Source: an uncultured delta proteobacterium
GTDB lineage: Bacteria > Myxococcota > Myxococcia > Myxococcales > Anaeromyxobacteraceae
Length of the DNA stretch: 25,252 bases
NCBI GenBank assembly: GCA_963828255.1
Contig: CAWHDZ010000032.1
Span: 1-25,252 of the forward strand
Reading direction: 5' to 3'
The notes under the pieces were generated by a model, which did no database searches, was not told the DNA's origin, and saw only the letters and a program-made list of their open reading frames with translations. Positions 2,410 to 5,113 of the stretch are shown in pieces (position 1 is the first letter of the stretch; every line of letters starts with the position of its first letter). The position numbers and the translations under genes are program-made.

Positions 2410-3717
2410 ATGCAACCACTCCGCTCCCTCCTCCTGGCCACCCTGCTCGCCGCTCCCGCGCTCGCCGGCGCCGCCGGCCCGGACTGGATCTCCGACGACT
2501 GGCCGAAGGCCCTCGCCGAGGCCAGGGCCCGCAAGGTCCCGGTCTTCGTCGACACCTGGGCCCCCTGGTGAAAGACGTGCAACTTCATGCGCGCCACGGT
2601 CCTGCGTGACCCGGCGCTCGTGAAGATGGCCGGGCGGTTCGTCTGGCTCGACATCGACACCGAGAAGGAAGCCAACGCCGGGTTCCTCGAGAAGTTCCCC
2701 ATCGAGGTCTGGCCCACGTTCCTGGTCATCGACCCGGTCACCGAGAAGCCGGTGCTCAAGTGGCTGGGCACCGCCACGGCGGAGGACCTGACCCGGCTCC
2801 TCGCCGACGGTGAACGTGCGGTGAAGGGCGGGGCCGGGGAGGGCGCGGATGCGCTGCTCGCCCGGGGCGACCGCGAGAACGCCGCCGGGCGCACCGCCGA
2901 GGCGGTCCTGCTCTGGGAGAAGGCGCTCGCCGCGGGTGGGCCGAAGTGGCCGCGCCGGGCGCGGACGCTCGAGTCGCTGGTCATCGGGTTCCAGTCGGCC
3001 GGCGAGCCGCGCCGCTGCGCCGAGGCGGCGCTGGCCGAGGCTCCCGGAATGGTGCGCGGACAGTCCTTCGCCAACGTGGTGTCGCTGGGGCTTGCCTGCG
3101 CCAACGATGCCGACGCCCCCTGGGCGAAGGCGGCCGCGGCGGGGCTCGAGCCGCTGGCCGTCGAGGCGGTGAAGCTCCCCGGCGTCCTGGCCGACGACCG
3201 GGCCGGGCTGTACGACGCTCTCGCCGCGGCCCGCACGAAGGCCGGCGACGAGAAGGGGGCGAGGGCCCGCACCGAGGAGGCCTGGAGGTTCCTCGTCGCG
3301 GAGCGCGCCGCCGGCAAGACCCCGGAGGCCCGCACCATGCTCGACTCCTGGATCGTCGGCGCCGCCATGGACCTGCAGGACCCGGGGCGGGCCGTGCCGC
3401 TCATCGCCGAGTCGGAGAAGGCCGCGCCGAAGGACTACAACCCTCCCTTCCGGCTCGCCATCCTGTATCTGGAATTGAAGCGGACCGACGAGGCCCTCTC
3501 GGCGAACGGCCGGGCGCTCGCCCTCGCCTACGGGCCGCGGAAGATCCGCGTGCTCACCCAGCGCTCCTCCATCCTGGAGGCGAAGGGCGACGAGGCGGGC
3601 GCACGAAAGGCGATCGAGGAGGCCATCGCCTACGCCGGCACGCTGCCCAGGGCCCAGCGGAATCCCCGGACCGTGCAGCGGCTCGAGGCCCGCCTGAAGA
3701 AGATGCAGGGCGACTAG
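2410..3717 (+). CDS. Exported thioredoxin-fold plus TPR-like protein; probable selenoprotein (U54, UxxC), 435 aa
   Basis: ATG 2410 gives [19 protein letters not shown] (signal peptide), then [29 protein letters not shown][TGA 2569-2571]-KTCNFMR, in frame with ORF 2587..3717. The Trx cis-Pro motif (VWPT) follows, then an Ala-rich helical TPR-like C-terminal region. Confidence 0.85.
2583..2625 (+). promoter_or_regulatory. Candidate bacterial SECIS hairpin for TGA 2569
   Basis: Begins 11 nt after the TGA. Pairings: CTTCAT(2583-88)/GTGAAG(2620-25), GCGCC(2591-95)/GGCGC(2613-17), and an apical stem of either GGTC/GACC or CACG/CGTG around loop GTCCTG. Folded by eye only. Confidence 0.55.
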
Positions 3718-4487
3718 AAGGCGAAGCCCACCTGCCCCACCGCCGAGGTGGCGCCGAAGGGCGCCCACTCCACGAGGAGGTCGATGCCGAACGGCAGGCT
3801 GGCCGCCACGCCGAAGGCCACCTGCCAGTGGGCCACGTCGGTGCCGGTGACGGAGGCGCCGCCGAGCTGCCAGAAGACCGGACCGCCGAAGACCTTGGCG
3901 CCCACGTAGGGGGCGACGATCCCCGCGATGGACTTCCCCGCGCTCGCCGAGAGGCCGGCGTCGAGGGAGGTGAGCGGGGCCTTCACCCCGCCAGGCCCGG
4001 TGGTGTTCACGCCGGAGGCGGCCAGGCTGGCCGACAGAGCCACGAAGGGCCACGGACCGCTGCCGTCCAGCGCCATCCAGGTCGCGCCGAGTCGCACGAG
4101 CCACCCGGGGTCCATCACGTAGGTGGCCCCGCCGGCGTCGATGCTCCCCGAGATCACGGCGCCCGCGCCGGCGGTCACCGACCAGGCCCGATCGAGCTGC
4201 CGGGTGACCGACGCGGCCACGCTGCGCTGGACGAACGGGGCGCTGACGTCGCCGAAGCGCAGCTCCGATGCCAGCCAGCCGTAGGCGGCGGCCACCCGCC
4301 AGACCGGCGCGGGCGCAGTCGCGGTACCCGCCGGGTCGGCGCCGTCGTCGGCGTCGCACACCCTCCTCGCCATCGCCGTGGGACCCACGGGCGCGGAGAC
4401 GCCTCAGCCGAAGGCGTCGCGCGGGAAGGCGAGGGCCAGCGCGGCCACCCCGAGGAGGGCCGCGGTCCGTACCGGGGGGACGCGCAT
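3714..4487 (-). CDS. Predicted outer-membrane beta-barrel protein; probable selenoprotein (U28 directly after the signal peptide), 257 aa
   Basis: ATG 4487 sits 2 nt after the upstream gene's TAG. It reads MRVPPVRTAALLGVAALALAFPRDAFG-[TGA 4406-4404]-GVSAPVGPTAMARRVC..., in frame with ORF 3714..4388. The body has amphipathic beta-strand patterns and a C-terminal ...GQVGFAF resembling a BAM beta-signal. Confidence 0.75.
4374..4393 (-). promoter_or_regulatory. Candidate bacterial SECIS hairpin for TGA 4406-4404
   Basis: Minus strand reads TGA GGCGTCTCCG CG-C-CCGTGG GTC CCACGG CG: an 8-bp stem with one bulged C. Counting the U of UGA as +1, GGUC falls at +22..+25, the same positions as the G22-G23-U24-C25 loop of the E. 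coli fdhF SECIS. Confidence 0.7.
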
Positions 4488-4489
4488 CC

Positions 4490-5113
4490 CTACTTCACCA
4501 GGATCTGCGCCTTCACGAGGTCGGCCACCAGCTGCGCCGACAGCGACTGGGCGGCGCTCTGGGCGTCCTGGACGTTGAAGGTGTTGGACTGGCCGCTCCA
4601 CACCAGCGACTCGGGGAGGGCGTGGGTGGAGTAGACGTTGGTCTCGGCGAGCACGTTGGTCTGCTCGGTGATGTAGCCCGGGGAGTAGACCGCGCCGTAG
4701 CCGTAGCCGTACGCGCCGTAGTAGCCGCCGTAATAGGGCGCGGCCGGCACGTAGGTCATGCTGGGCGGCACGTACTCCTCGGTGGTCTTCTTGGTGAGCC
4801 GCTGCACGATGACCAGGTCGACCTTGTTCTCGGCCACGTACTGCTTCACCTTCTCCTTGTCGAGCTGGCCAGGCGGGAAGACGCTGGCCGAGGTGGAGGC
4901 CTGGAAGCCCTTGTTGATCAGCGCCTGGGCGAGGCCGTTCTCGAACTGGACCCGGTACATGTCGTTCGGCATCACCCCGATGATGAAGATGCGGCTCACC
5001 GGCTGCGCCCGGTAGTTGGGATCGCGCCAGGTCTGGACCAGGTTGGTGGTGGTGCAGGAGGAGATCACCAGGACGGCCAGGGCGGGAACGATGGCGCGGA
5101 GCAACGTCTTCAT
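4490..5113 (-). CDS. Lipoprotein, DUF4136-like (207 aa)
   Basis: MKTLLRAIVPALAVLVISS-C lipobox, Tyr/Gly-rich segment, and the C-terminal LVWSGQSNTF pattern. Codon usage matches the neighbouring genes. The family call is from memory. Confidence 0.8.
   Translation of the reverse strand: MKTLLRAIVPALAVLVISSCTTTNLVQTWRDPNYRAQPVSRIFIIGVMPNDMYRVQFENGLAQALINKGFQASTSASVFPPGQLDKEKVKQYVAENKVDLVIVQRLTKKTTEEYVPPSMTYVPAAPYYGGYYGAYGYGYGAVYSPGYITEQTNVLAETNVYSTHALPESLVWSGQSNTFNVQDAQSAAQSLSAQLVADLVKAQILVK

Follow-up and report, generated by a model that had tools for sequence, protein, structure and literature searches.

Two neighbouring predicted selenoprotein genes of an Anaeromyxobacteraceae genome, a thioredoxin-TPR protein and an outer-membrane barrel, whose adjacency probably reflects inherited gene order

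When two predicted selenoprotein genes lie tail to tail and one of them adjoins a lipoprotein gene, an immediate question is whether the three encode one system. We examined such a locus in an uncultured delta proteobacterium whose close homologues carry the label Anaeromyxobacteraceae, using a stretch of 25,252 nucleotides (nt), the window, which is contig C32 (CAWHDZ010000032.1) of a 4.3-Mb genome with 71% GC. Gene 1 encodes an exported thioredoxin-TPR (Trx-TPR) protein, gene 2 a predicted outer-membrane beta-barrel, and the third gene a predicted lipoprotein. The original prediction for this locus joined all three in a dedicated reductase-barrel-lipoprotein system. From the comparative sequence analyses below, it appeared that the in-frame TGAs of gene 1 and of the barrel gene both very likely encode selenocysteine (Sec), and that the barrel represents an uncatalogued, widespread predicted outer-membrane family, likely starting with Sec. 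The adjacency of the two genes, however, is probably inherited gene order, with no dedicated system or pathway behind it.

Selenocysteine codons and their insertion elements

The Sec assignment was drawn from conserved TGAs, Cys homologues, downstream hairpins and the presence of the Sec machinery. SelA, SelB and a TGA-bearing SelD were detected in the genome, all over model cut-offs, and a tRNA-Sec was confirmed by Rfam (78.3 bits). ARAGORN reported a second tRNA-Sec at G000:C30:93412-93504, without Rfam confirmation. Across a sample of 401 genomes of the phylum, taken to be Myxococcota, 302 contained SelA, a tally that counts one unpublished genome (G257). It was noted that 3199 of the 40499 TGAs lying in open contexts of the genome (7.9%) precede a GG-loop hairpin of the same pattern; a single hairpin is therefore weak evidence, and conservation and covariation carry the case for Sec.

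The barrel TGA was shared by 14 genomes from two genera, with identities of 64-100%, and was also seen in other families and phyla. For gene 1, 92 genomes of the family yielded 63 full-length matches, 60 with one TGA and three with Cys, and the TGA occupied the attacking Cys site in 31 of 31 loci checked. Both TGAs recur in a second assembled copy on contig C31. It is scarcely credible that one or both are true stops or sequencing errors: databases do call the barrel as a fragment of about 219 amino acids (aa) beginning after the TGA, but the conserved TGA, the signal peptide upstream of it, a covarying selenocysteine insertion sequence (SECIS), the Cys homologues and the TGA of the C31 copy all speak against this. 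The original prediction had argued that these were no chance nonsense codons and had named a TGA error as a way to overturn it; the conserved codons, the Cys homologues and the SECIS-type hairpins bear out its argument, and no such error emerged.

The SECIS of the barrel gene was assessed in 60 distinct mature barrel sequences (58 Sec, 2 Cys) from loci picked by a U/C-G motif; four broken or cut loci fell outside this set, as did one Gly form, two Thr forms and two Cys forms of different spacing. Among the 58 Sec forms, the hairpin loop lies 18 nt after the UGA and reads GGTCC (n = 42), GGTCT (n = 12), GGTGC (n = 3) or GGGCC (n = 1), in line with the bacterial consensus of a G-starting apical loop 16-37 nt after the UGA given in the available text of PMC13188914. 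The element was 94.3% paired, and its closing pair, at third codon positions, varied as G-C (22), C-G (21) and U-A (1). This covariation was reached by 0 of 500 shuffles, and no slid control came near it. GGT accounts for 4.7% of the Gly codons in the genome.

Gene 1 matches Thioredoxin_7 (PF13899; E 9e-12, above cut-off), and with its W-U-K-T-C motif and Cys orthologues it is the UxxC thioredoxin-TPR protein that had been predicted. Its repeats are TPR-like, with a TPR_12 match below cut-off, and no NCBIfam family reaches cut-off. Trx-TPR is a near-universal myxobacterial envelope oxidoreductase, with Sec in the source family and Cys in many others. Two hairpins follow its TGA. The first was paired in 84.9% of cells (0 of 500 shuffles reach this), with a z-score against synonymous recoding of -2.5 in 27 Sec forms and -0.28 in 19 Cys forms. 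Each gene had been expected to carry one TGA and a downstream GGTCC hairpin, and both do, but GGTCC forms the apical loop in the barrel gene only; in gene 1 it sits in the stem of the first hairpin, where relatives have CGTCC and others, and that hairpin has no G-starting loop.

The SECIS of gene 1 is likely the second hairpin. All 30 distinct Sec sequences have, at +64 (+61 in one of them), a stem whose loop is GGTTC or GGTCC. None of 19 Cys sequences has it, among them a Cys form that encodes identical amino acids by other codons; these sequences are related, and the counts overstate their independence. The nearer hairpin was dropped as a candidate since the G-loop hairpin at +64 tracks Sec versus Cys forms. 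Gene 1 therefore lies outside the canonical 16-37 nt spacing, and would show, in a clean natural case, a bacterial SECIS lying far beyond the accepted distance. A second, Sec-containing Trx-TPR paralogue was also noted at L130 (G155:C3:25642-26889), with its hairpin at +61; the closer match in that genome is a Cys form.

Gene order and co-occurrence across the phylum

In 10 of the 14 genomes of genus g1, gene 1 and the barrel gene lie directly tail to tail. Among the others, G056 has a contig break at the site, G053 has the two genes apart, and G060 and G064 (94-95% complete) place gene 1 directly against the lipoprotein gene, tail to tail, with no barrel match. The same barrel-less joint was encountered on one environmental contig. 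All three genomes of genus g9 carry an O-methyltransferase gene between gene 1 and the barrel. These sister genera are the only ones with Trx-TPR near the barrel; elsewhere, what lies in the slot separating gene 1 from the RlmL-like, GGDEF and two-component genes differs from genus to genus. At barrel loci outside g1 and g9, of which the cross-phylum sample was drawn with a shallow alignment and is biased to two motifs, Trx-TPR or the lipoprotein stood beside the barrel in 0 of 40, over a span of about 5-6 kb or as far as the contig reached.

Trx-TPR was found in 278 of the 401 phylum-sample genomes compared to 77 for the barrel (4 of them weak), and 57 of the latter belong to one family, f2, which we infer to be Myxococcaceae. 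Among 14 f2 genomes with a Sec barrel, chosen across 12 genera, the best Trx-TPR match was a Cys form in all 14, one of them with an extra Sec paralogue; SelA was present in 14 of 14 f2 barrel genomes checked. The reverse mismatch was also recorded, as G075, G026 and G027 pair a TGA-bearing Trx-TPR with a non-Sec barrel. The lipoprotein family has 2-5 copies per genome in g1 and g9, most of them away from the barrel. Because of the unequal frequencies, the differing slot genes, the absence of the barrel from G060 and G064, and the Cys Trx-TPR of all 14 f2 genomes, the barrel and Trx-TPR are probably independent of one another.

The dedicated system of the original prediction was a selenol relay of Trx-TPR, barrel and lipoprotein, with the UxxC reductase recycling a Se-S bond of the barrel. 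Its strengths are the arrangement in g1 and g9 (tail to tail or one gene apart), the predicted export and the Sec of both proteins in these genera, and two distant barrel loci (L156 and L162) that adjoin other exported thioredoxin-fold genes. The convergent orientation, the slots without a barrel, the separated genes of G053, the 40 loci lacking either partner, the Sec states without co-variation and the scattered lipoprotein copies count against it, and we regard it as improbable. The checks set beforehand went the same way: the genes proved neighbours in two sister genera only, with very different overall frequencies, and no Sec/Cys co-variation was seen. Nor does the pair resemble the selenoprotein operon or neighbourhood type (Sao, Tso), being convergent and together only in g1 and g9. 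This negative matters: neighbouring selenoprotein genes here probably reflect the ancestry of gene order.

Other neighbours of the barrel were recorded as well. In many f2 loci (L107-L119), a di-haem cytochrome c peroxidase-like gene and an amidohydrolase gene lie downstream of the barrel, which is one shared ancestral context, unseen in other lineages. Single-case sulfur or redox neighbours comprise MsrA (L067:6315-6962, +), a class V aminotransferase (L169:5632-7047, -) and a pyridine nucleotide-disulfide oxidoreductase (L165:5591-6982, -).

The barrel family and its Sec/Cys pair

A barrel profile search returned 482 clusters at 50% identity. Members were also found in records labelled Polyangiaceae, Kofleriaceae, Haliangiales, Krumholzibacteriota and Fibrobacteraceae, and Sec persists in the barrel in several phyla, at identities of about 30%. 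No sequence family in Pfam, NCBIfam or the PDB was found for it. Among 128 members, seven weakly matched Autotransporter and six weakly matched OMP_b-brl, while none matched NF041027, NF049945 or PF13557 at E 0.01. The table in the available part of PMC13188914 comprises 119 selenoprotein families, two of barrel type (NF041027 and NF049945) and none of Trx-TPR type; the present family is missing from those 119 entries and from NCBIfam 20.0. Barrels and myxobacteria are not mentioned in the available text of PMC13326102, PMC12013277 and PMC13745706, and ExtI, with one Cys, is not presented as a selenoprotein in that of PMC1914089 and PMC5877670. We found no description of the barrel family in the literature searched; BSepDB, supplements or Haft and Tolstoy 2025 could list members. 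The barrel would add a selenoprotein family whose members are truncated by gene callers, and the Sec predicted to begin the mature protein across phyla offers a small test case for the role of selenium in the outer membrane.

Sec28 is the predicted first mature residue because its TGA directly follows a hydrophobic leader ending A-F-G. In the 60-sequence set, A-x-A or A-x-G directly precedes U/C in 57, and a second Cys lies 11-16 residues past U/C in all 60. All 99 rows that have a residue in the C44 column show Cys, which is invariant in U/C forms; two Thr-form homologues lack C44. The barrel does not fit a lipoprotein type with a lipidated U/C at +1, as Ala stands at -3 in 57 of 60 and a charged residue often at -2, and a lipobox needs L/V/I at -3. 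Of 149 cluster representatives listed, 31 were full-length Cys forms, 20 started just past the site and 98 were not classed. The sole Cys-barrel genome tested (G096) gave no SelA match.

The AlphaFold model of the mature barrel (pLDDT 91.5, pTM 0.85) is a closed, even-stranded barrel. Together with the signal peptide and a C-terminal aromatic residue (F/W/Y in 54 of 60 sequences), this is consistent with the outer-membrane barrel of the original prediction, and U28 and C44 are its conserved Sec/Cys pair. The top fold match was a designed 10-stranded barrel (Z 17.0, root-mean-square deviation (rmsd) 2.4, 137 aligned), and the best natural matches were OmpT (Z 14.6, rmsd 3.7, 195 aligned) and OpcA (Z 14.3, rmsd 3.6, 183 aligned), with Foldseek TMq of 0.55-0.57 for these two. 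Several autotransporter structures align from model residue 1, which indirectly suggests that the Sec segment was modelled inside the lumen.

We lean modestly towards an explanation in which a lipoprotein-barrel pair came to lie beside an ancestral Trx-TPR gene in one lineage only, and in which Sec28 and Cys44 of the barrel form a redox- or soft-metal-reactive pair on a periplasmic segment that plugs the pore. The barrel would be exported and then cleaved before Sec28, and U28 and C44 would form a Se-S bond or share a metal site. The Sec/Cys segment would enter the lumen from the periplasmic side as a plug, where the pair could react with an oxidant or a soft metal. General periplasmic thiol-disulfide oxidoreductases would reset it, with the neighbouring Trx-TPR as a possible, non-dedicated donor. 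Every step past the Sec assignment is one that we infer, and the barrel fold is predicted.

Several observations weigh against this explanation. Gene 1 and the barrel have stayed close together in two genera, at identities of 60-95%. Mature residues 1-30 reach a pLDDT of only 56-68 in the model. Position 28 is Gly in G075 and Thr in G026 and G027, genomes that hold SelA and a TGA-bearing Trx-TPR, and the barrel can therefore do without Sec or Cys at this position. No conserved functional neighbour of the barrel indicates a cargo. Three of the 40 loci outside g1 and g9 adjoin a thioredoxin-fold gene, of which those at L156 and L162 are predicted to be exported; L163 was removed from the count for lack of a signal peptide, and its neighbour presumably resembles a cytoplasmic thiol peroxidase. 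Two exported neighbours in 40 compare with about 1% per locus expected (P about 0.04-0.07), with the 1% rate taken from the source genome, those two genes included in the profile and many of the loci related. These neighbours weakly suggest that the barrel requires a periplasmic reductase of some kind. It seems unlikely that ten-stranded pores across phyla are gated by a selenenylsulfide on an N-terminal plug with Sec as mature residue 1 and opened by periplasmic thioredoxin-fold proteins, in the source lineage by the Sec Trx-TPR; if true, a Sec Trx-TPR opening a Sec plug would be a selenium-to-selenium relay across the envelope.

In the main rival to the reactive plug, the pair acts as a structural staple and the barrel is a receptor or surface enzyme. 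Here the selenoproteins would again be independent, U28-C44 would be purely structural, and the barrel would serve as an adhesin, receptor or surface enzyme via its conserved polar residues D176, D217, H220 and E240. The Gly and Thr forms of position 28 fit this well, as does the location of the strongest conservation beyond the N-terminus, in an F-G-G-P loop and a G-x-D-x-x-H motif. The closest folds, OmpT and OpcA, by their entry titles a protease and an adhesin, are likewise not open pores. However, Sec occurs in 58 of 60 locus-derived sequences, in several phyla at about 30% identity, and selenocysteine is costly and mostly retained at reactive sites; we therefore consider the staple possible but doubtful. 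Far less probable is that the barrel is a channel for uptake of selenium or a thiophilic metal and that selenium supply controls its synthesis, an undecoded UGA leaving the signal peptide only. The UGA does stand right at the signal-peptide junction in 58 of 58 Sec forms, but no recurring metal or selenium transport genes were found near the barrel, and the Cys, Gly and Thr forms would have no use for such a switch.

Locus layout and comparison with known systems

Table 1. Coordinates of the features at the locus, numbered within the window.
Feature	Position	Strand	Remarks
Exported thioredoxin (Thioredoxin_7)-TPR selenoprotein gene (gene 1)	2410..3717	+	435 aa, UxxC active site
TGA read as Sec54 (W-U54-K-T-C57)	2569..2571	+	Cys at same position in orthologues
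First, long hairpin of gene 1, GGTCC in stem	2583..2625	+	likely spacer hairpin, not SelB-binding loop
Likely SECIS of gene 1, loop GGTTC, 64 nt past UGA	2628..2648	+	tracks Sec forms
Interlocked stop codons CTAG, both stops TAG	3714..3717	.	
Predicted 10-stranded outer-membrane beta-barrel selenoprotein gene (gene 2)	3714..4487	-	257 aa
Predicted signal peptide of barrel, residues 1-27, ends A-F-G before Sec	4407..4487	-	cleavage inferred
TGA read as Sec28 (D-A-F-G-U28-G-V-S), predicted mature residue 1	4404..4406	-	
Canonical SECIS of barrel gene, CCGTG[GGTCC]CACGG, loop 18 nt after UGA	4376..4390	-	
Cys44 of barrel, likely partner of Sec28	4356..4358	-	
Predicted lipoprotein gene	4490..5113	-	207 aa, lipobox I-S-S-C20, weakly DUF4136-like

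The coordinates agree with the predicted pair of adjacent convergent genes with interlocked stops, and 6 of the 9 loci compared within the genus retain the CTAG interlock. The predicted junction of the lipoprotein and barrel genes, TAG-GG-ATG, is present as a 2-nt gap rather than an overlap. The lipoprotein gene matched DUF4136 below cut-off (E 0.017), and signal peptides were assigned from sequence pattern. No sigma-70 promoter or terminator pattern was found in 2200-5400, which is uninformative at 71% GC. In the contigs of two RNA runs, gene 1 and the lipoprotein gene are each partly covered and 3944-4211 is uncovered, with no bearing on expression.

Genome contamination was 6.6%. Window positions 1-10704 were assembled twice, the second copy lying at G000:C31:135936-146649 (97.5% identity), and positions 21906-25252 are also doubled at G000:C16:492-3823 (99.3% identity); these doubled parts probably represent a strain mixture. 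Window positions 7466-15451 hold a phosphate-regulon-like block (response regulator, histidine kinase, 442-aa exported protein, phosphate-binding protein, ABC ATPase and PhoU), the first genes of which are conserved beside gene 1 across the family.

Read-through TGAs elsewhere in the genome were also considered. An ab initio scan by coding score was swamped by gene-to-gene junctions, and was set aside. With a hairpin filter added, the scan recovered the barrel and the SelD, Prx-like, DsbA-like and SelW-like genes; gene 1 was missed because its hairpin sits further from the TGA. The likely selenoprotein genes are SelD (G000:C3:30374, +), with the same hairpin loop as the barrel, and a Prx-like gene with TPGU (G000:C7:198587, -), a gene with VUPFC (G000:C38:24730, +) and a gene with CKVU (G000:C3:259362, -), with loops of the GGAC, GGTC or GGTCC types. 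From their motifs, we take the VUPFC gene to be DsbA-like and the CKVU gene SelW-like. An in-frame TGA in a GGDEF-like sequence (ND-U-FGHQVGD; locus L177, G000:C27:45434, -) scores strongly for coding on either flank but shows no hairpin under the hairpin filter; it is possibly a nonsense change or an error. Two paralogous frames with ...HVKSRIW-U-... (G000:C40:285450, + and C23:21819, +) also show coding signal flanking the TGA.

Among known barrels, the COG4313/PF13557 channels (4RL8) are likewise small channels with an N-terminal segment at the lumen, but the fold score of 4RL8 (Z 8.6) is well under those of the 10-stranded matches, and PF13557 itself gave no match. The omptins OmpT and Pla, with OpcA, offer the best natural fold likeness to the ten-stranded barrel, at 8-10% identity and with no PDB sequence match; this is a match of fold alone and does not imply shared function. 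The GSU2204 family (MtrB/PioB-type, NF041027) and the TonB-dependent receptor FCYXU (NF049945) are likewise outer-membrane barrels with one Sec. Unlike these, the present barrel has about 230 aa, is predicted to be 10-stranded, lacks CXXCH and CxxU, and carries its Sec at the predicted mature N-terminus. Gene 1 resembles the UxxC thioredoxin-fold selenoproteins (PF00085; thiol:disulfide interchange PF13098; Trx7/PDZ NF041199) in fold and in having U at the attacking Cys. It differs from those listed in a Thioredoxin_7 plus TPR architecture that is absent from the table in the available part of PMC13188914, and in its likely SECIS at +64.

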